Positions 51,060 through 64,000 are shown, counted from the stretch's first letter. The stretch is DNA of 64,000 bases from an uncultured Armatimonadetes bacterium (GCA_963717145.1 OY970325.1:4448001-4512000); one strand, 5' to 3'. Translations and numbers: made by a program. Notes: generated by a model not told the origin, from the sequence alone.

Positions 51060-53927
51060 CTAGTTGCGCCGCTTGCGCTTGGCATCGAGGAGGCGTGAGG
51101 AGAGGGTGCCGCCCTCGGATGCAGGCTTGGGCTCGGATGGAGATGCCTGTGCCGGCGCCCGTTCGGGCCCAGGCGCGGATGTCTGTTGAGGCCGGGCGCC
51201 GGGCGGGACGGTATTCGTCGTGAACTCGACCTTCTCGACGGGCTTGCGCTCCCTCTTGGCGCGGAGGAGGTTCGACACCATCTCCGGCTCCTGAGTGACC
51301 GGTCTCGTCTTCCTTCGCAAACGGTGCGCGCGGATGAACTCCCTCAGCTTCGAGTACTCCTCCACGAACTGCTCCGGCGTGATCACCAGCCGCCGAACCG
51401 CCACGTCGAGTGGGAGAAGGATCGCCGCCAGGATCACGAGCAGCCGCCAGAGGTCCGTGTATGCCCTCGATCGGCGGAATGCCTGAGTGAACACCTCCGA
51501 GGCCTTGGAGTCATACCGCCCGCCGGTCTCGGACGCGATCCGCTTGAGGAGCGCCGTGTTCGGCGCGATGTCCTTGTACTCCGGCGGGTAGGGGATCGTG
51601 ATGACGCTGACATCCGGCGAAGTTTGGTCCTGATCGCGCCTCACCACGTTCACCACGTAGCTTCCGACCTCGCGCGCGTCGAAGGTCGCCTCGTAACGAC
51701 CCGGGCCGGTCTGATCGATTGAGAGCTGCTTGCCCTTCATGCTCGGGCCGACCACCGATCCCTTGAACTTGATCTGGTTGAGGAAGTTGCCCTTGTCGTC
51801 CACCGCGTCGATGGTCACATATCCCGTTCCGTTCTGTACGTCCACCATCGTCTGGAAGTCGGTCGGCGGATTCTTGCGCATAGTCGAGCGGACGACCTGT
51901 GCCCAGAACCTCCCGTAGTCCGGCCATTGGACCCAGTGAGACGACCACCGAGCCTTGCAGTCCGACGTGAACGCCGCCGACTTCCCGAGCCCATACTGCC
52001 ACGTCGCGAGGATCGGGTCCTTGTGCTTCGAGATCATCGAGATGCGCGCGGTTGGCTTCGGGCTCGTCGTCACGTATCCGAGCAGCGCCGGGACGGACGT
52101 GATGCCCGCCAGTTCGGGGCTCGACGGATCGATCGTCGGGATGAACGGCTCCTCCACGATCAGCGACTTCGAGACCGTCATGACATCCTTGGTGAAGATC
52201 GCCTTCAAGTCGGACGCCTGCAGCGTGAGGTAGAAGTTGCCCCGACCGGCCGCCGCCACGTTCTTGAGGAACGGCACGTGTGGGCCGTCGCCGATCGCAA
52301 CCGCCGTCACCGTGATCTTCTCGCCCGCCATCTGCTTGGCGAGCGGCACGACGCCGTCCTGGTCATCGCAGTCGCCACCATCCGCGAGCAGGATGATATG
52401 CCTCTGCCGGGTCCTGCTCTTCTTCATCATCTCATAGGCCATCTGCATCGAGGGGAACACGGCGATCCCGCCGCCTTCCGCGCGGATGGTGGAGATCTGG
52501 TCGTAGATCGGGCCCTTGCTGTTCGCCTGCTGAAGCTCGACCGCCGCTACCGGGCTCGTGTGGCAGACTATTACCCCGACGTAATCGATCGGCTGGAGCA
52601 GCTTCACGACCGCAGACGCGCCATCGTTCGCCAGCTGGATCTTCGTCGTGCCGCCCTCCGGTGCGCTCATCGAGCCGGACTTGTCCATCACCACGATCAC
52701 CGAGAGCGAGGGCAGCACCTTCGTCTTGCGGACCGACATATCGACCGGGAGCGCCTTCTCGATCGGCGTGTCGAAGTAGCCGCCCGCGCCGAAGCCGTCC
52801 TCGCCGCCGACCATCGTGAACCCGATTCCCAGGTCCTTGACGCCCGATTCGATCAGCAGCATCTGCTCGGCAGACATTCCGATCGCCGGAACATCCGAGA
52901 GCACGAGCATGTCGTAGCCTCTCAACTGCGCGAGCGAGGTCGGAATCCCCGAGCGGTCGCGCGCCTCGACCTCGATGTCGGTGGTCTTGAGCGCCTCGGC
53001 GAGGTATTTCGCCTGGCCGGGGACTCCCTCCACGTACAGCACCTTCGGCTTGCCGTTGACCATCGTGTAGGCGAGCGCGGTGTTGTTCTCCATGCGAGTG
53101 TCCTGGTCGCACTCCAGGATCGCCTCGTACTCGTAGCTTCCGGGCTTGTCGATCGACTGCTGGAACGTGAGGACGCTCTTGCCCTTCGTAAGCTGCACGG
53201 ACTTGACCCCGACTGGCACGCCGTTTCTGAGGACACGGATCTGCGCCGAGACCGGCTCCTTGGCGATCGCAACCACCTTGAGATCGAACGGCTCGCCGAC
53301 TTTCACCGCGCTCGGGCAGACCATCTTGTCGAGCAGGACCTCGTGCGGAAGCTCGTTCGTGAGCGGCACGACATCGACCGAGACGTCGTTCGAGCCGATG
53401 AGCATCGCCTGCTCGATCGCCTTTCCGCGCGTCTCGTTCCCATCGGAGAGGAGCACGATCTTCTTCGCGGTCTTCTCCGGGAATAGGGCGAGTGCGAGGC
53501 CTAGTGCCTGCGAGATGTCGGTATTCCCGGTGTCGGGGATCGAGTAGATCCTGTCGATCTTCGGGACGTTCGACGGCGAGATCTCCACGGAGGCATCCGC
53601 TCCATATGCTATGATGCCGACGAGGTTCTCGGTCTTGAGCTGCTTCAGGGCGGTGTTGATATACGCCAGTGCCGTCTGCTGTCGAGTCTTCGGGATGCTG
53701 TCCGAGATGTCGATCACGAAGACGACGCACCGTTGGGAGACGTTCTGGACCGTGCGCGCGCCTGCGAGGGCGAACACAAGCATGACGAGGATGAGCGACC
53801 GCAGGACGAGCGCGAACTTCGACCGGAACCTCGACATATCGGCGAGGCTGTGGGCCGCCATCCGGTACGTATAGTACCCCAGCGGTATCAGAATCAGTAG
53901 CCACAACGGCTTGGTGAACTGGATCAT
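51060..53927 (-). CDS. Membrane protein with two VWA domains and a GATase-like domain
   Basis: MIDAS DISDS and DKSGS, VLLSDGNE, YDMLVLSDVP, GGYFDTPIEKALPV, WQYGLGKSAAFTSD. Confidence 0.9.
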   Translation of the reverse strand: MIQFTKPLWLLILIPLGYYTYRMAAHSLADMSRFRSKFALVLRSLILVMLVFALAGARTVQNVSQRCVVFVIDISDSIPKTRQQTALAYINTALKQLKTENLVGIIAYGADASVEISPSNVPKIDRIYSIPDTGNTDISQALGLALALFPEKTAKKIVLLSDGNETRGKAIEQAMLIGSNDVSVDVVPLTNELPHEVLLDKMVCPSAVKVGEPFDLKVVAIAKEPVSAQIRVLRNGVPVGVKSVQLTKGKSVLTFQQSIDKPGSYEYEAILECDQDTRMENNTALAYTMVNGKPKVLYVEGVPGQAKYLAEALKTTDIEVEARDRSGIPTSLAQLRGYDMLVLSDVPAIGMSAEQMLLIESGVKDLGIGFTMVGGEDGFGAGGYFDTPIEKALPVDMSVRKTKVLPSLSVIVVMDKSGSMSAPEGGTTKIQLANDGASAVVKLLQPIDYVGVIVCHTSPVAAVELQQANSKGPIYDQISTIRAEGGGIAVFPSMQMAYEMMKKSRTRQRHIILLADGGDCDDQDGVVPLAKQMAGEKITVTAVAIGDGPHVPFLKNVAAAGRGNFYLTLQASDLKAIFTKDVMTVSKSLIVEEPFIPTIDPSSPELAGITSVPALLGYVTTSPKPTARISMISKHKDPILATWQYGLGKSAAFTSDCKARWSSHWVQWPDYGRFWAQVVRSTMRKNPPTDFQTMVDVQNGTGYVTIDAVDDKGNFLNQIKFKGSVVGPSMKGKQLSIDQTGPGRYEATFDAREVGSYVVNVVRRDQDQTSPDVSVITIPYPPEYKDIAPNTALLKRIASETGGRYDSKASEVFTQAFRRSRAYTDLWRLLVILAAILLPLDVAVRRLVITPEQFVEEYSKLREFIRAHRLRRKTRPVTQEPEMVSNLLRAKRERKPVEKVEFTTNTVPPGARPQQTSAPGPERAPAQASPSEPKPASEGGTLSSRLLDAKRKRRN

Positions 53928-53937
53928 GTTTCTCTGC

Positions 53938-54027
53938 CTGATGTAGGAGCAGCTTCCTAGCTGCGATGGGGTTCCCTTTCTAGCTATGAAGGCCCCCATC
54001 GCAGCTAGGAAGCTGCTCCTACATCAG
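53938..54027. repeat. GTAG-type REP doublet overlapping the upstream gene's stop
   Basis: CTGATGTAGGAGCAGCTTCCTAGCTGCGATGGGG...CCCCATCGCAGCTAGGAAGCTGCTCCTACATCAG. Confidence 0.9.
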
Positions 54028-55866
54028 ATACGCCGGTGGTACGCATACCACTCGAATGCCAGGACTCCGAGCGCGAGGAGCACGAGCGGCTGGAAGAACT
54101 CCCGGTTCGTTTGCACCGGCTTCCCGGTGGACGCGAACTTCTTGCCGCCGACCGAGAACGCCTCCCTGGGCGCGGTCGATGACTCCTGCATCGAGGTCAG
54201 GTTGCACGCGAACTCCCGCCTGACGCCTTTGCCGGTCACGCGGTAGACGCCCGCGCGCTCCGTGTTGTCGAAAATCACAGGCGTTTGCGTCACCTTGATC
54301 GCCTGCTTGTGGCCGAGTGGATCGGTCACGTCGATCTGCGCCAGGCCCGCGGGCACGTCGATGTACATCGGCTGGCCCGTTCGAATGCTCTCGCCCGCGC
54401 TCAATGTCTGCGCCGGGACGAGCCAATCAAGGCAGTTCGTGATGAATATCGGGAAGCCGACTCGGAGCGGGAAATCGCTGTCGAGCAGGCTGAACGAAAG
54501 CTGCACGAAGTTCCGGCCGCCCCTCGATCCGGCAACGGCGAGCACTCCGCCTGCGCTCTCCACGAGTGCCGTCGCCCAGTTCGCAGGCGAGAGACGGCGT
54601 GCCTCCGCGACCTGCACGTTCCCGAAGTCGACGTATCGGCTCACGGGATGATTCCGCGCGTAATCGACGATCGACGGGCGCTGGATCATCTCACCGATCC
54701 CAGCGGGTCCCTGGGGCGCGGATGAGTTGATCAGCAGGTATCCTCCCTGCGGGACGTTCGCCGGCGGGGTAACTCCATCGAAGACCACCAGGTCGTACTT
54801 CGAATCCTTGAAGCTCGCGGGAATCGCCTCCGCCTTCGTGACCGATGTCCGGGGATCGAGGTTGAGCGCATTCTGGAGGAAGATGTTGCCCTTCGAGACC
54901 ATCAGCACCGAGATCTTGCGCGGCTTCGTTAGGTAGACCGAGCCGCTGTTGTCCACGGCCAGGTCGTCCTTCACATCGAGCTTGGCGGTCACCCGGCCGT
55001 CGAGGTTTCCGACGTTGTTGAGCAACTCCTGCCTCGACTCGCCCGCCTTGAGCGTCTCCTCGCGCACGTCGAGAAGCTCGTCGTTGAGGTAGACCTCGAG
55101 GTTGAACGCCTGATCGCGCTTCGAGTAGTTGCGGAATCCGATGAAGACCTGCTGTTCGCCGGAGAGCGTCTTGCGTGACGACAGGCCCGTGATCGCCACG
55201 TTATCGCATTCCCGCCCGATGCGCATGTAATCGAGCCGCGCGTTCTCGGCCGAGAGGTCGGAGAGCGCCTCGAACCCGCCGTCCGAGAGCACGACGATCC
55301 GCGGGGGAGTGCGCGACTTCCCCGCGACGAGTGAGAGCGCGAGGACCAGAGCCTGGCGCATGTTGCACGGGGTATCGACCGGCCCGAGTCGCCTGATCGC
55401 CTCATTGAGCGACTTCTTGTCCGAGGTGAACGATGCGACGACTCGCGCCTTCGAGCCGGCGGTCATGACGAGCATCGTGTCGCCGCCGCCCATGCGTCCG
55501 ACGATCCCGAGCGCCTTCGACTTGGCGTCATCGAATCGAGAGGGCTTCACGTCGGTGGCCTGCATGCTGGCGGATGAGTCGAGGATGACGACGATCCGGT
55601 TGCCCTGACCGCTCTGACTCCTGATGTATGGGCGCGCTATCGCTCCAATGACAGCCAGGAGTGCGATGACCTGGAGCAGCAGCAGGAGGCTCTTCCTGAG
55701 CTTCTGAAACGGCGCATTCGCCTGGATGTCGGCGACCGCATCCTGCCAGAGCATGACGGACGAGAACCACCTGCTCTTTGCGTTTCAGCTTGAGCAGGTA
55801 TAAGAGCACGATGATCCCGCCGAGTGGCAGGATCAGCAGTAACGACCAGGGTGATAGTAAGCTCAT
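54024..55866 (-). CDS. BatA N-terminal plus VWA domain membrane protein; apparent frameshift ~55765
   Basis: MSLLSPW...LYLLKLKR, then SSVMLW...LLLLLQ...ARP, ILDSSASM, VLSDG, C-terminal TM with EW. Confidence 0.88.
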
Positions 55867-56334: not shown

Positions 56335-57237
56335 TTACTTCAATGCTCCCCGCCGGCGCAGGTAGTTCAGTATCAGGTCCTCGAACGGCGACTGGTTCGT
56401 CACGCGGACGTAGTTGCACCCGTACCGCATCGCGAACCCCTCGATCTCCCCGAGGAACTCCCCGAGCCGCTGCTGATACCGTCGGAGGAGCGTCTGCGTG
56501 ATCGTGATCTCCCGCTTCTCGCCGGTCTCCGAGTCGACCATGAGCAGGTCGCCGACCGTCGTCGGGTTGACCTCCTCCTGGTCGAGCAGGTGCACCATCG
56601 TCACCTCGAACTTGCGCGAGAGGAGCGCCGTGAGCCCCTGCTGATACGTCGGATCGAGGAAGTCCGAGATCACGATCGCCAGCCCGGAGTTCGACGTCCG
56701 AAGGCTGAAGTCGCGGATCGAGCTTCCAAGCTGCGTCTTCCCCGAGGCCTGCACAGTCCGCAGGTAGTCGAAGATCGTGAACGCCGCCTGCTTACCCCGC
56801 TTCGGGCTGAGCATCGCCGCCAACTCCCCGCTGAGCGCCGCCAGACCGACGCGGTCGAGGTTGCTCAGCGCGATATACGACAGTGCAGCCGCGATGCGCT
56901 TGGCGTACAGCAGCTTCTTCGGATGGCCGAAATCCATCGACTTCGACGTGTCCACGAGTATATAGACGTGCAGGTCCTCTTCTTCGACGAACAACTTGAG
57001 GAAAAGCTTCTCGAGGCGCGCATAGACGTTCCAGTCGACGCGCCGGAGGTCGTCGCCTGTGGTGTAGTTTCGGTAGTCGGCGAACTCGACCGCCGAGCCG
57101 CGCTTGGTCGATCGCCGCTCACCCCGGAGCCGCCCGGGGAACACCCGCTTAGCGACGAGCGACAGCCGCTCGATTTTCCGCAGAAACTCGGGATCGAGCA
57201 GTTCCTCGCGTTCGTCTATCTGTTCTATTGTATCCAA
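56335..57237 (-). CDS. DUF58 domain protein
   Basis: GSAVEFADYRNY..GDDLRRVDWN..AR, DTSKSM, ISDF. Confidence 0.93.
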   Translation of the reverse strand: MDTIEQIDEREELLDPEFLRKIERLSLVAKRVFPGRLRGERRSTKRGSAVEFADYRNYTTGDDLRRVDWNVYARLEKLFLKLFVEEEDLHVYILVDTSKSMDFGHPKKLLYAKRIAAALSYIALSNLDRVGLAALSGELAAMLSPKRGKQAAFTIFDYLRTVQASGKTQLGSSIRDFSLRTSNSGLAIVISDFLDPTYQQGLTALLSRKFEVTMVHLLDQEEVNPTTVGDLLMVDSETGEKREITITQTLLRRYQQRLGEFLGEIEGFAMRYGCNYVRVTNQSPFEDLILNYLRRRGALK

Positions 57238-57308: not shown

Positions 57309-57722
57309 CTAGTCGGCCTGAGCCCGCTGCCGGTGCCGATGTATCGACCGCCCGGCGAAGAAACCGATCAGCGCTGAGGCCGCGATGACGGAAAAGGCAA
57401 TCCCCGAGCTAGCCAGACGATGATGGACAGCGCCTTCACGCATCCCATCCATGACGGCAATGACGATCACGAAGACCAGGATCGAGACCGCCGACTGAAG
57501 CATGTGCATACGGGTCTGGCGTGTCCACCCCGGATCATCCCACTGCCACCCAAGGATGAAGGCTGAAACCGCGAAGAACAGCAGCCCGGCGCCGACCACA
57601 ATCTGCCCCGCGTACGCCGGCAGGAGAACAGCCGCAATCGTCGTTGGGACTGCAAATGCCAGCACATAGCCAAGCAGTTGCAGAATCATCACCGCGTCAC
57701 TGGGGGTCTGGTTGTCCTGCAT
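57309..57722 (-). CDS. Hypothetical 4-TM membrane protein
   Basis: Hydrophobic ORF with SD GGAGG. Confidence 0.6.
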   Translation of the reverse strand: MQDNQTPSDAVMILQLLGYVLAFAVPTTIAAVLLPAYAGQIVVGAGLLFFAVSAFILGWQWDDPGWTRQTRMHMLQSAVSILVFVIVIAVMDGMREGAVHHRLASSGIAFSVIAASALIGFFAGRSIHRHRQRAQAD

Positions 57723-57779
57723 ATGCGTCCTCCATCGTCGAAAGCGGAGTCTGCGGAGCTTCCGCTCTGCTTGGCGCGA

Positions 57780-58202
57780 TCAGCCGTTCAATCTCCCTGC
57801 GCTCCTACCAGTGCCGAGCTTGCGGCCGAGCATCAATGGAGCGACAACAAACATCAACCCGGCCGCGAAGAGCGCCGCGACAACCATTAGCGCATAGGTA
57901 GCTCTCCCCGATAGAGCAAACTGAACTGCGACTATCACAATTGGTGACAGATACATCGAGAGCAGCACGACCACCAGCCAAGGAGCAAGGCTCGGACCTG
58001 TCAGCGGATAGCTATTCCGGTAGTAACCGATGAGAAACGCCGTTACCGCGACGAACAGGATGCCAGTCCCGCCTGCAACCCACTCCTTGTATTCCGGCAA
58101 GAGTAAGAGCCCGGTTGTGCCTACGAGCACGAAGGCGAGTTCGTACACGATCACTTTTCGCGCGATTCGGTTCGTCTTCTGCCGTTCCTCAGATGGCTCC
58201 AC
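57780..58202 (-). CDS. Hypothetical 4-TM membrane protein
   Basis: GTG start after GAGG; four hydrophobic segments. Confidence 0.6.
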   Translation of the reverse strand: MEPSEERQKTNRIARKVIVYELAFVLVGTTGLLLLPEYKEWVAGGTGILFVAVTAFLIGYYRNSYPLTGPSLAPWLVVVLLSMYLSPIVIVAVQFALSGRATYALMVVAALFAAGLMFVVAPLMLGRKLGTGRSAGRLNG

Positions 58203-58258
58203 TGTTGATCCTCGACTGCAAAGCGGAAGCTCCGCAGACTCCGCTTCCGCACTCCACA

Positions 58259-59257
<999 letters not shown>

Positions 59258-59270
59258 GATACCTCCCTGA

Positions 59271-59382
59271 ACATGCAGGAGGGATTTGCCGGGATGGTTT
59301 GTGCCCGGTAATCCCGAACGCGCAACGATCGGTGTTCGGGATTACCGGGCACAAACCATCCCGGCAAATCCCTCCTACATGT
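59271..59382. repeat. GTAG-type REP doublet
   Basis: AGGAGGGATTTGCCGGGATGGTTTGTGCCCGGTAATCCCGAAC...GTTCGGGATTACCGGGCACAAACCATCCCGGCAAATCCCTCCT. Confidence 0.9.
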
Positions 59383-61173
59383 CTATTCCAAACTGCTGAA
59401 ATAATCCTTGACCCTGTTCCGGTACGCCGGGGGGACCTTCTCCTTCGAGAGGGCGCTCTCGGCCGACTTCTTGTAGTTCGAGTACACATCGGTATACGGC
59501 ACTGAGGCGGGCGATGAGAGGGTGGGAGCGCCCTTCGACTCACCGGCTGAGAACACCTGACCGCTCTCGCCGAGCATCGACGGCGAGTGGGAGATGTCCT
59601 TCACATCGTTGAGCTTGCCCTTCGGTCCGGTATTGGCATCGTCTCCGCCCCTGCCCGATCCGGGGCCGCCCTTGCCGCTCGGGCCTTGACTCTCGCCGTC
59701 CGTGCCCTTGCCGTCCTTACCCGTCATTCCGCCAAGGCCGGATGCGATCGATCCGCTTGAGCCGCTCTGACCGAGCGAACAACTTGCGCCGCTTCAAGTG
59801 CCGCCCGCATGTTTGAGCGCCTCCGCGAGCTGCTGCTGGCTCTGCATCTCCTTGGTCATCTTCGCCAGCTCTTCGGGACTCATCTTTGCCAATCTCTCGG
59901 CGTTCTCGCGCATCATCTTCGCAAGCTTGTTCAGGTCCGTGCCCTTCAGTGCCTTGGCGAGCGCATCGAGCTGCTTTTGGAGCGCCTCACGGTCGGCCTC
60001 TTTCATCTGACCGCCCTGCGCCTTCTGGGTGAGCTTCTGCATCAGCTCGGACGCCTTCTTGAAATCCTCGTTCTCCGCGAGCTTGGCAAGTGCCTCACCG
60101 AGTTCCTTCGGGATCGCGAGACTGCTGTTCGGGTTGGTGTACTTCTCGACCGCCTTCTCGAGTTCCTTGCGCTCGGACTCGGTCAGCGGCTCGGACTTCT
60201 GCGCGAGTTCGGCCATCCGCTTGTCGGACGCCAGCTTCCTGAGCGCCTCAGCCGGCGGAATATTCTGCTTCTCCGCCATCTTGCGGGCCATGTCCCTCGC
60301 GAGTTCCTCCGCCGCCTTCTTCATCTCGGCCTGCGCCTCAGCCATCGACTTAGTGGTCGAGTTCTCCTTCGCCAGGCGATCCTGCTCGGCCTTGATCTGC
60401 TTGTTCAGGCGCTGGGAGCTGATCATCGCTTCCTTCTTCGGCATGCGGCCGGTCTGCATCTTGCGCCCGAGGTCGTCGAGCTTGCCTGCGAGCTTCTTCA
60501 AGTCCTTCTGTCTGTCGCCGGCCCGCTTTTCGATCTCCTTGCTGATCTTGAGGAGTGTCGCTCCCTCCTGCTTCATCGTCGCGATATCCTGTTGACGCGC
60601 CGGCGAATTGAAGCGGGCCATCTGCGGGATGAAGGTGACCCCGAGCAGCAGGACGACGGCCGCGAGGAAGGCGACGTGCGGCGGGCCGAATCGATGGCGG
60701 AAGACCTCCGACGCCTTCAGCCCCGAGAAATGCTCGTTGGCATCCGTGACGAGCGCCTGTTCGAAGTCAGTAGGGAACGCCCGGGAACCGACCCTCACCC
60801 CCGACCCCTCTCCCTCAGAAGGGCGAGGGGAGACCGCCCCCCCTCGCCCTTCTGAGGGAGAGGGGTCGGCGAAGGCGATGGCGGTCGAGAGCCGCTCCTT
60901 GAGGCCGGTGCGCTTGTCGGCGGCGATGGCGACGGTGAGGTCCCTGAGCGGGCGAGTCAATGCGAAGGCGCACCCGCCGAGTATGCCCGCGATCACCGTC
61001 GAGAACCAAATGCGGTAGTCGAGCAGCGAGGTCACCTGTGTTGACAGGATCACCATGCACGTGGCCAGGACCGCTCCCACTCCGCCGCCGAAGAGCCCGT
61101 ATCGCTCGATCAGCAGGAGCCGGACCCGCCGTCGCAACCGCCATATCTGACTATCGAGACCTTTACTGTCCAC
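59383..61173 (-). CDS. Membrane-anchored coiled-coil protein with Gly-rich tail; in-frame TGA at 59794-59796 (candidate Sec)
   Basis: ORFs 59794-61173 and 59383-59727 share a frame: ...KHAGGT*SGASCSLGQSGSSGSIASGLGGMTGKDG...VPPAYRNRVKDYFSSLE; N-terminal TMs and GLKERLSTA motif. Confidence 0.8.
59757..59782 (-). promoter_or_regulatory. Candidate bacterial SECIS hairpin
   Basis: mRNA UUGUUCGCUC-GGUCA-GAGCGGCUCAA; apical loop begins 21 nt after the UGA. Confidence 0.6.
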
Positions 61174-61195
61174 TGCTCACCGTTACCTTGCCCGT

Positions 61196-61282
61196 GACAC
61201 CGTAGGGGCGATCCTTCTACGGTCGCCCGTGGAATCGCAGAGAGTGCACGGGCGACCGTAGAAGGATCGCCCCTACGGTGTC
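61196..61282. repeat. GTAG-type REP doublet (same family as 2589-2703)
   Basis: GACACCGTAGGGGCGATCCTTCTACGGTCGCCCGTG...CACGGGCGACCGTAGAAGGATCGCCCCTACGGTGTC. Confidence 0.9.
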
Positions 61283-61289
61283 CGCAGCC

Positions 61290-62924
61290 TCAGTATTGCT
61301 CTTCCTGCACCCCGCCGCCTGACTTCCGCGCAACCCAGGGGGCGGCGGCAAGAAGCCCGAGCGTCAGGGCGGCATAAAACCCGCTGACCAGCATCCACGA
61401 CAGATCCTTGGGCCACCAGAGTTTCGGCATGGTCGGGGACCACCCCTGAGCCTCCACGATGAGCGGCGTCACCGGCCAGAACGCGGCCAGTTGCCAGATC
61501 ACTCCCGATGCCCTGGAGAGCCCGAAGTTGTAGTTGGCCAGTATTATCGCATAGCCCGCGAACATCATGATGATCGCGACGACCGCGACTACCACCGCGT
61601 TTCGTCTCAGCTTGACGACTGCCGATGCGAATATGGATATCGCGGCCATTGCGGCTGCTACAGTCACGCATACTGCCCCGATCTTGTAGACGCTGAGCCA
61701 GTTCGCATGGGTCATGTGCGTATGCGTAGACCCGACCGACCAGCGGAGCGTGAGGCCGAATACCACATACTCCAGTATTGCCCACATCAGGACGAAGCAG
61801 AACGCTCCCGACATCTCGCTCTTGAACATCTTGCGGGGATCCAACAGGCCCATTATGCTCGGCTTTCCCCCCTGCGCCGGCATGCGACCGGTCGCGAAGA
61901 TCGGCGCGACATGCACGAACATGATGAACATGCTCGCGGCGGACATGGTGACCAGCGCCTGTATGCCCATGGAACCCATCGCGCCCCTGTAGGTCGCGTC
62001 GCCGAATGTGATCCACGTGGTGAAAAGCGACGATGCGATCAGCAGTATCCTCGCCGGGAGGGCCTTCTCCGCCCTCAGGTACTTCACGTGCATCGCGGCG
62101 ACGAACAGCAGAGCCGCGCCATAGAGGGAATGCTGGATCAGCGGAGGCAGGTAGATCGGAATCTTGAGACCGCAGACTGTCGCCTTCATCAATGGTCCCC
62201 ACGGCGCCCAGCCCGGGTTCATCAACGCCATTGCATTGACGGCCCCTCCTCCGTACCACATGCTCTGCAGCAGGGCCGCGCCCGATCCCAGCGTCGAGAG
62301 CAGATAACCCAGGGACGTGCCGTAGGTCAGCAGTACCGCGGCGGCCGTGCGGTTGAACAGCGACGACCAGAAGACACCCATCGCAGCGAGTACGAAGGTC
62401 CATGCGATCAGCAGCAGGTAGGTGACGAAAACCTCAGCGGGCGATATTCCGCCGAACATCAGGCAGATGCCGGAGAGCGGCAGAGAGCACATCAGCAGGA
62501 TCAGCGAGTAGAGCATCGCGCTGAGAAGCTTCCCGAGAACCACATTCCCCGGCGACAACCTGGTCAGCACCAGCATCTCGATGGTCTTCTTCTCGAGTTC
62601 CAGGGTGAGCGCACCGGATGTGAGCGATGGGATAATCAATGCCAGCAGAACGGTCTGCGTCCAGTTGAGGCTCATGAACAGCTTCTGTCCGAGCCTGGCG
62701 TTCACGAGCGACTGAGCGCCGTATCCGGTCGCAGACATGATCCACATGGTGTAGTAGGAGATCAGCAGCACGACGCCGAGGAACAGCACGTAGCCTCCCA
62801 TGACCAGGAAGCCCTTCCGTCCCCGCATCCTCGTGCGAAGCTCCTTCGCGACCACGGGGTTGTCCCGAATCCCATTGGCCCATACATCCTTAAGCTGCAT
62901 ACTCACCGTTGCTGCAATGCTCAT
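61290..62924 (-). CDS. ABC-2 type transporter permease-like membrane protein
   Basis: NPVVAKELRTRMRG, PSLTSGALTLELEKKTIEML, LGKL, FGGISP. Confidence 0.85.
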   Translation of the reverse strand: MSIAATVSMQLKDVWANGIRDNPVVAKELRTRMRGRKGFLVMGGYVLFLGVVLLISYYTMWIMSATGYGAQSLVNARLGQKLFMSLNWTQTVLLALIIPSLTSGALTLELEKKTIEMLVLTRLSPGNVVLGKLLSAMLYSLILLMCSLPLSGICLMFGGISPAEVFVTYLLLIAWTFVLAAMGVFWSSLFNRTAAAVLLTYGTSLGYLLSTLGSGAALLQSMWYGGGAVNAMALMNPGWAPWGPLMKATVCGLKIPIYLPPLIQHSLYGAALLFVAAMHVKYLRAEKALPARILLIASSLFTTWITFGDATYRGAMGSMGIQALVTMSAASMFIMFVHVAPIFATGRMPAQGGKPSIMGLLDPRKMFKSEMSGAFCFVLMWAILEYVVFGLTLRWSVGSTHTHMTHANWLSVYKIGAVCVTVAAAMAAISIFASAVVKLRRNAVVVAVVAIIMMFAGYAIILANYNFGLSRASGVIWQLAAFWPVTPLIVEAQGWSPTMPKLWWPKDLSWMLVSGFYAALTLGLLAAAPWVARKSGGGVQEEQY

Positions 62925-62937
62925 GCTTTTCTCCTGC

Positions 62938-63969
62938 CTATGATCTTCTCAAGCGGTCGAGTCTTCGGACGGACAACCACTGACATACATATGCGTATGA
63001 TATCGATATGCCGACTGATGATAGCGCAAACCGCAAGACCTCATTGGCGTCCTTATAGCTGTCCACGATCTCGGACGCAGCTCTAAGCGGGTTGGCTATC
63101 GTGAACGCCTCCGCATCGCCTGCCGAGACGCTGGTAACCGCTGACCATATCCGGCCGGTGCCGAGCAGTACCAGTATGACCGCCATGTACGACAGGCCGA
63201 GGGGTATCACCCAGTTGGCTCGTCTGCCGATAATACGACTCATCACCCAGGACGCGACTCCAAATACTACGAAGCTCACCGGCGCTGCCTGGTAGAACAC
63301 CAGATCAGTGAAGCCCAGAAGCGCGTTCGCAGAACCTCGCATCAGGTCGCCAAGGAATACCAACGCGGCAGGTACACCAACGATCAGAACCATGGTAGTC
63401 AGGTATGCCGCAAATATGCTCGTTCGCGAATCCTTGAACACACACGAGCACAGTACTCCGAGTGCTCCGTAGGTACACGCGGCCACCAGGAGCACCCCGT
63501 ACATCTCGGCAACCTGCAAAGGCGATATCCCGCCAAGCATGAACACGACTGCCAGGACCGGGAGCGATGCCGCGAGCAGCATCACTATCTCAGCAACTGC
63601 CGCCGCCAACTTCTGCACTACAATGGCCCACGTTGGCAACAACGTTATGGCCAGCAGATCGAATGTTCGTCTATCGCGCTCGGCTGAAACAGTCATGGCA
63701 CTGTATGCCGGCACGATAAGGCACACCATCGAGACCTGCAGGAGCGACATCCACATGAAGATGTCCTCACCGAGCCGGCTGAGGTCCCCTGGCGATGGCC
63801 CTCCGGGCCAGGTCGCGAACAACGCGATCACCAGTATCGACAGCACTCCAGCGTATACCCCCATCACGATGAATGGCCGGGCCTTCCGCTGCCGGATGCG
63901 CATCTCCAGCCTGAGCACCGGGAACTCGATCTCCCTTATTCGATTGGTAAGCAGCCTAAGCTTTGCCAT
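62938..63969 (-). CDS. ABC-2 type transporter permease-like membrane protein (paralog)
   Basis: PVLRLEMRIRQR, ERDRRTFDLL, QKL, LGGISP. Confidence 0.85.
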   Translation of the reverse strand: MAKLRLLTNRIREIEFPVLRLEMRIRQRKARPFIVMGVYAGVLSILVIALFATWPGGPSPGDLSRLGEDIFMWMSLLQVSMVCLIVPAYSAMTVSAERDRRTFDLLAITLLPTWAIVVQKLAAAVAEIVMLLAASLPVLAVVFMLGGISPLQVAEMYGVLLVAACTYGALGVLCSCVFKDSRTSIFAAYLTTMVLIVGVPAALVFLGDLMRGSANALLGFTDLVFYQAAPVSFVVFGVASWVMSRIIGRRANWVIPLGLSYMAVILVLLGTGRIWSAVTSVSAGDAEAFTIANPLRAASEIVDSYKDANEVLRFALSSVGISISYAYVCQWLSVRRLDRLRRS

Positions 63970-64000
63970 CAGCAGCCAAATGCTACGCGCGCCGCAAGGC

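Follow-up and report, generated by a model that had tools for sequence, protein, structure and literature searches.

Bacterial selenoproteins that depend on SelB and a selenocysteine insertion sequence (SECIS), such as FdhA and SelD, have an in-frame UGA codon followed by a hairpin with a GGUC-like loop. They have homologs with cysteine in place of selenocysteine (Sec, U), and depend on selA, selB, selC and selD. The alternation of Sec and Cys at one column of an alignment is the classic signature of such a protein, and the bSECISearch criterion is reportedly a stem-loop just downstream of the UGA, whose apical loop contains G some 16-37 nt away. We describe here a gene that resembles this group in each of these respects, lying in a stretch of 64,000 nt from an uncultured Armatimonadetes bacterium (GCA_963717145.1 OY970325.1:4448001-4512000). 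We call this whole stretch the window, and coordinates are counted from its start. An earlier note on this DNA had put the gene forward as a candidate selenoprotein, and the reading is supported by what was found: a UGA column that is conserved or replaced by Cys in homologs, in-frame conservation downstream that extends to a common tail, hairpins following the codon, and selA, selB, selD and tRNA-Sec in the genome. On this comparative evidence, UGA codon 460 is very probably decoded as Sec.

The open reading frames (ORFs) at 59794..61173 (459 aa, GTG start) and 59383..59727 (114 aa) are in the same minus-strand frame. If TGA is translated as U, 59383-61173 gives a single product of 596 residues whose only U is at codon 460, within ...KHAGGT-U-SGASC-SLGQSG; Cys465 lies five residues after the U. 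This bears out the claim that there is one reading frame here, broken only by the TGA at 59794-59796, with a Cys five residues on.

Orthologs were sought in 61 relatives and then in 401 genomes of the phylum (Armatimonadota in the source names), 146 of which had matches at E <= 1e-10. The loci were read through TGA in the best frame and aligned to the family profile, giving a set of 73 intact orthologs that leaves out overlapping duplicate loci, the partial L082, the frameshifted L040, and also L047 and L048. An in-frame TGA in the motif (K/Q)AGG(T/G)-U is present in 42 of the 73, and some clade members read T-U-G-S-C-G, T-U-L-G-C-G or T-U-M-S-C-G, i.e. UxxC motifs. Among the relatives without TGA, Cys is found at the same column, usually as the second Cys of a CxxC (ACKSC in L034, ACGTC in L036 and P0012, ACRSC in L092, ACSAC in L065, ACGAC in P0010 and ACLAC in P0015); P0013 also has Cys at the column, and L044 reads AGGT-C there. 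A conserved TGA and a Cys, either of which the earlier note had hoped to see in homologs, are thus both found. One clade of five (L086-L090, from G217, G225, G099, G233 and G153) has two in-frame TGA codons 15 codons apart, GGT-U-xGSGRGHRPHFGFG-U. The AGGT-TGA motif and its hairpin are also kept in the frameshifted copy L040/L049. We note that this ortholog, from the 60%-complete genome G052, is broken into three frames, owing either to frameshifts or to errors of assembly.

All forms, with and without TGA, end in the same C-terminal tail, ...VPPAYR..VKDYF.SL, in frame past the TGA. There are 13 invariant columns in the last 46 residues (10 diverse members), and a YF..[LI] tail in 18 of 18 loci examined. 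Protein-level conservation, with ALGQC and related motifs, also holds in the stretch from the TGA to any start codon. Each Cys form is one ORF (530-546 aa), and with the tail conserved in frame after the TGA the homologs are not, as had been considered, consistently two proteins. These data bear directly on the possibility that the TGA is an ordinary stop, terminating a protein of 459 residues, with the 114-codon ORF either a small gene in its own right or what is left of a decaying one. Such is the annotation given by public gene callers: of 91 homologs collected by word search, 57 stop exactly at GG(T/G) and 10 have the tail, and 20 of the best 150 cluster representatives from a profile search end in ...GG(T/G) (a 21st match to the regular expression is a full-length protein). 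There is also an ATG 22 codons past the TGA in the gene at 59383-61173, and its own hairpin is not special by energy. However, an ordinary stop would not be expected to precede sequence that is conserved as protein before any start is reached, nor a tail held in the same frame across the phylum; neither would it be expected to be replaced by Cys in single ORFs, to be tied to selA, or to be followed by suppressed synonymous variation. We regard this explanation as extremely improbable. In public records the homologs appear as 'hypothetical protein', with truncated lengths.

The earlier note, and this note alone, points to other broken-looking genes in the window, as might be seen if the TGA had arisen through faulty sequencing or assembly, or were a mutation that recently inactivated the gene in this genome only. 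Such an origin has virtually no probability, and we consider it refuted by conservation, since the same codon is found in the same motif in 42 other independently assembled genomes. The sets of sequencing runs that match the locus number eight, all of them soil-metagenome contigs and each matching <=0.25 of the sampled words; there were no RNA data among these eight. The TGA site is spanned by related-strain contigs from three other studies. No difference at 59794-59796 is found among the differences listed for these contigs (40 of 178), which does not prove identity there and so gives weak support.

The occurrence of the TGA follows that of the machinery for Sec insertion. selA is found in 218 of the 401 genomes of the phylum sample; it is present in 42 of 43 genomes with a TGA form vs 17 of 32 with a non-TGA form, although the compared genomes are kin, so that the counts overstate their independence and tell less strongly for Sec. 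The sole TGA-form genome without detectable selA (G225) is 86% complete and has selB (410 bits), and among the 43 none was found that clearly lacks Sec machinery. Within the window's class, neither selA nor selB is present in the relatives without TGA, G038 and G041 (both Cys forms) and G015. The Sec label requires at least 12 changes on a tree of the 73 proteins built with FastTree, and well-supported branches force 8 of these; the Sec forms come from 15 GTDB families. It might be argued that the TGA is read through without Sec, by near-cognate or suppressor decoding that inserts Trp, Cys or Arg, the hairpin merely stimulating readthrough. Comparative data by themselves do not distinguish which residue is inserted, and the hairpin would fit a readthrough stimulator equally. 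Yet such decoding would give no reason for TGA forms to be confined to genomes with selA or, in the last case, selB, for the class relatives G038 and G041 that lack both to have Cys, for the column to alternate with Cys, or for the loop to resemble that of the fdhA-like gene in the same genome. We therefore consider readthrough of this kind highly improbable. A genome-wide reassignment of TGA was also ruled out; several orthologs use TGA as a true stop, and selA and selB are open under table 11.

The genome that contains the window is a single contig of 5.37 Mb. The selA gene (567 bits) adjoins a tRNA-Sec gene with anticodon TCA (70.6 bits with Rfam, and confirmed by ARAGORN); selB (383 bits) and selD are also present, so that the set of genes that the earlier note proposed to look for is complete. 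selD has an in-frame TGA of its own, as has an fdhA-like gene. The hairpin 3′ of the fdhA-like TGA, GGCC-GGUCU-GGCC, is placed at nearly the same distance as that in the gene at 59383-61173. The genome thus holds at least three candidate selenoprotein genes. The fdhA-like gene and selD lie outside the window (G000:C1:3207160-3207945 and 4140327-4141253), and in each the in-frame TGA is followed by a hairpin.

The RNA 3′ of the UGA in the window reads AGCGGCGCAAGUUGUU-CGCUC-GGUCA-GAGCG-GCUCAAG. The hairpin begins 16 nt past the UGA and its GGUCA loop 21 nt past; the stem, the G-initiated loop and the possible outer UUG/CAA pairs are all as the earlier note described them. Taken singly, this element is ordinary, which counts against the Sec reading. 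The fold of 59752-59796 has an energy of -13.2 kcal/mol (z = +0.38), a value that 124 of 200 shuffled sequences equal or better, and 111 of 555 windows of the same size in the gene are as stable. The hairpin has only 5-6 bp and is offset by one base from the register of its class relatives, and no covariance model among the Rfam bacterial SECIS families matched 59650-59850 at up to E = 10. Judged by folding energy, the hairpin is no more than chance would give, and what significance it has comes from the comparison with orthologs alone.

In the orthologs a hairpin follows the TGA at 41 of 41 sites folded, starting about 9-19 nt past the UGA; that in the window is present, if not significant alone. 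The stems differ between clades, and many of the loops are GGUC-like. The hairpin is GCACUG-GGU-CAGUGC in the window's class, GCGCGC-UGGAU-GCGCGC in genus g46, GUCUUCGC-UGGAU-GCGAAGAC in family f27, GGGCGG-GGUCA-CCGCCC in the two-Sec clade and CAGCGG-UCC-GCUG in family f9, and in the five two-Sec forms the second UGA has its own hairpin too. At 40 of 41 sites the stretch +9..+45 folds more stably than an average window of the same gene (median z -1.9); it lies in the lowest 5% of gene windows at 23 and in the lowest 1% at 10.

Codon usage provides a separate view of this stretch. As a measure we take the fraction of identical-residue pairs that have different codons. In ten g46 genes, for which the mean over the gene is 0.448, it is down to 0.094 at codons U+6..U+14 (rank 2 of 542 windows); in 14 genes of the window's class the corresponding values are 0.593 and, at U+9..U+17, 0.324 (rank 1 of 503). 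When 15 class members are aligned without gaps, 90% of the cells of an 8-pair helix are paired, vs 23-49% in slid registers; both sides vary in three of the eight pairs, and such values were attained by only 7 of 500 shuffles. The Cys form L092 shares the peptide ACALDARQW with its Sec-form congeners, but encodes it with synonymous codons that weaken the hairpin and alter the loop. These comparisons support the view that RNA structure is constrained after the TGA, and the covarying hairpins that the earlier note expected of homologs are found, with different stems in each clade, compensatory changes and suppressed synonymous variation. We also note that the genome of L092 (G103) has selA, the hairpin having been lost through synonymous changes. 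In the Cys form L036, whose genome (G041) lacks selA and selB, a hairpin remains at the old position, possibly as a fossil SECIS.

The protein was modelled with AlphaFold2 from an alignment of 40 rows, with a mean predicted local distance difference test (pLDDT) value of 76. The model has a helical loop region between the second and third helices, a long helical stalk at residues 191-469 with U460 within its last helix, a disordered linker (471-529) and a small tail. This suggests a layout of three membrane helices with a conserved loop between helices 2 and 3, a stalk of ~280 residues ending in AGGT-U, a linker and a tail of ~45 residues. The N-terminus is Arg-rich and the loop before helix 3 is Lys/Arg-rich; by the positive-inside rule for the topology of membrane proteins, the stalk and the Sec site are therefore probably outside the cytoplasm.

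The family is large: with an E-value limit of 0.001 a profile search of 1.84 billion cluster representatives gave 13,003 proteins, of which 7,279 remained at 1e-10 and 2,021 at 1e-30. It is unannotated, and at the site its members have Sec, Cys (often as CxxC or in a cluster of Cys residues) or neither. Pfam gave no hit above cut-off for the whole protein, three pieces of it or 15 homologs, except for a hit of coiled-coil type in P0083. There was no hit above noise in NCBIfam release 20.0 for the window protein and eight diverse members, and no match to the AlphaFold2 model at E <= 0.001 with Foldseek against the PDB. The only hint of the family outside the phylum is P0091, named Verrucomicrobiae (E = 2.7e-4).

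We propose that UGA codon 460 is decoded as Sec by the genome's own SelA, SelB, SelD and tRNA-Sec, and that the small hairpin with the GGUCA loop directs this decoding. Sec460 and the single nearby Cys465 could then form a reversible selenenylsulfide. The 42 Sec forms have 0-2 Cys in their last 390 residues, and in 36 of them a Cys lies within 19 residues of the U, either upstream or at a spacing of +3, +5, +6, +7, +10 or +13. In the five two-Sec forms Cys is absent from the last 390 residues; these are candidates for a diselenide pair, the two Sec residues bonding to each other. On this count nearly every Sec form has just two chalcogen residues near one another, as expected of a selenenylsulfide or diselenide redox pair. 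The pair would be a redox-active or redox-sensing element on the stalk, tuning the activity of the module encoded by the adjacent MoxR AAA_3, DUF58 and VWA genes, which are on the same strand. A MoxR homolog is beside the ortholog in 55 of 82 fetched loci, the flanks of which are short. A redox pair at this site, working together with the MoxR/DUF58/VWA module, is offered tentatively, as a possibility a little short of an even chance.

Some observations do not sit easily with a redox function. The Sec form L032 has neither a Cys partner nor a second U. The non-Sec forms have from 0 to 11 Cys, and in 7 of 31 there is none in the last 390 residues. Furthermore the model is of only moderate confidence at the Sec site and of poor quality in the tail, while the topology proposed would follow from the charge distribution alone. 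Since seven of the non-Sec members and L032 lack Cys, the site cannot be essential to the core role of the family, and this partial dispensability suggests a regulatory or sensing add-on rather than a core activity. The Bat operon of Bacteroides, which is similar in its MoxR/DUF58/VWA make-up, is linked to aerotolerance, and by analogy this would fit a redox role. The fullest form of the proposal is a selenoprotein family extending across the phylum, in which an extracytoplasmic selenol/thiol or two-Sec pair would be the redox sensor or relay of MoxR-DUF58-VWA ('aerotolerance'-type) systems; taken as a whole we consider this doubtful.

Table 1. Features of the candidate selenoprotein gene and its surroundings in the window
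Feature	Position	Strand	Basis
Whole gene of the candidate selenoprotein: GTG start, 596 codons including one UGA, TAG stop at 59383-59385	59383..61173	-	Open frame with TGA read through; orthologs align over residues 1-596
UGA codon 460, proposed Sec, motif AGGT-U	59794..59796	-	In-frame TGA/Cys column in orthologs
Cys465 (TGT), candidate partner of Sec460	59779..59781	-	Only Cys in the last 390 residues
SECIS-like hairpin	59757..59782	-	Core stem CGCUC 59777-59773 with GAGCG 59767-59763; loop GGUCA 59772-59768; outer UUG/CAA pairs possible
N-terminal pair of hydrophobic helices, ~residues 27-75	60949..61095	-	AlphaFold2 helices 3-43 and 53-73, pLDDT above 90; membrane insertion predicted from sequence
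Palindromic repeat element inserted in frame, ~residues 101-133, in the loop between helices 2 and 3	60783..60875	-	Orthologs align as 3-104 + 134-596, without the repeat
Third hydrophobic helix, ~residues 165-185, before the long helical stalk	60619..60681	-	AlphaFold2 helix 164-184; membrane insertion predicted
Gly-rich low-complexity linker, Sec site to tail	59524..59763	-	pLDDT below 50 for 471-529; length varies in orthologs
Conserved C-terminal tail, residues 551-596 (...VPY..V...Y.K.AE.AL..E.VPPAYR..VKDYF.SL)	59386..59523	-	13 invariant columns; in frame past TGA
MoxR-type AAA+ ATPase, next gene downstream	58259..59257	-	PF07726 AAA_3, 3.1e-63
DUF58 protein	56335..57237	-	PF01882, 5.8e-41
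VWA protein, BatA-type N-terminus sub-threshold	54024..55754	-	PF13519, 1.2e-19; PF07584 below cut-off
Large protein with VWA and GATase1-like domains	51060..53999	-	Domain scan
ABC-2-type permease-like membrane protein, upstream	61290..62924	-	PF12679, 28.4 bits vs 27.2-bit cut-off; weak GldF-like hit
Second ABC-2-like permease, upstream	62938-63999		

Repeats are found both within and around the gene (Table 1). The element at 60783..60875 has copies in about 30 places of the genome, and pLDDT is low over the residues that it encodes; metagenome contigs break at its ends, where the summed depth is hundreds to thousands. Long palindromic repeats also flank the gene, at 59276-59376 (between the gene and moxR) and at 61186-61290 (upstream), with BLAST hits in ~35 and ~73 genomic bins of 150 nt respectively. 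Only two high-scoring segment pairs of >=60 nt were found for 61186-61290, both at the locus itself. These flanking repeats are like repetitive extragenic palindromic (REP) elements and could act as terminators or insulators. The ~950 bases from moxR to the DUF58 gene (57309-58258) hold on the operon strand only ORFs of 137 aa and 219 aa, the latter overlapping moxR, and neither had a hit in Pfam or NCBIfam; this stretch may be a broken gene.

If the Sec reading is true, it adds to the selenoproteins a family outside both the known enzyme types and the thioredoxin-like proteins, which is common in one phylum and lies within a wider family of about 13,000 clusters at 50% identity. With its members annotated as truncated hypotheticals, counts of the selenoproteome of such organisms would be too low and the gene models wrong. 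It would also link the use of selenium to MoxR/DUF58/VWA modules, whose function is poorly understood, and the natural Sec, Cys, two-Sec and no-Cys variants of the one site would be a ready-made series for testing its role. Should the reading as a redox sensor or relay also be true, these widespread and mechanistically obscure modules would gain a concrete chemical input.

The protein differs from selenoproteins of the FdhA and SelD type in having no recognised enzyme or thioredoxin-like fold, being instead a membrane-anchored helical stalk with a low-complexity linker. In its N-terminal membrane helices, long helical region and low-complexity stretch it is like proteins of the DUF4175/TIGR02302 type. 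Kinship with DUF4175 (PF13779) was nevertheless rejected; the window gene is missed in both the whole-genome scan and direct scans, and the distant relative P0092 scores 17.9 bits, below the 27.3-bit cut-off. The gene order, with MoxR AAA_3, DUF58 and VWA following, one VWA protein having the sub-threshold BatA-type N-terminus, is like that of MoxR-DUF58-VWA (Bat-like) clusters. Unlike the components of these clusters the window protein belongs to no Pfam or NCBIfam family, and as far as the scans show it is not one of BatA-E.

A search of the literature on selenoproteins in Armatimonadota or with MoxR or von Willebrand proteins, in which supplementary candidate lists were outside the scope, found nothing on the family and no selenoprotein from MoxR-DUF58-VWA clusters, and there is some risk that it is already in a candidate list. 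A 2026 review tabulates 119 prokaryotic selenoprotein families, none with such an architecture or an AGGT-U motif (PMC13188914, Table 1), and no family of this kind is in the parts of the deep-Sep (PMC12013277) and BSepDB (PMC13326102) reports that were consulted. The statement in the earlier note that no such selenoprotein family was known agrees with this, there being no match among the catalogued families (NCBIfam; PMC13188914, Table 1). The nearest likeness is to the UGSC-containing protein (NF041046) and to the UxxC/CxxU redox selenoproteins (PMC13188914, Table 1), since some clade members have UxxC and the Cys forms CxxC. However, there was no NCBIfam hit in the nine members scanned, the partner Cys in the window's class is 5 or 10 residues away rather than 3, and the architecture is unrelated. 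In contrast to the catalogued selenoproteins, the proposed Sec of the window protein is at the end of a stalk, in an AGGT-U motif that occurs in no listed family. We rate it as a new selenoprotein family that uses the ordinary bacterial mechanism of Sec insertion.

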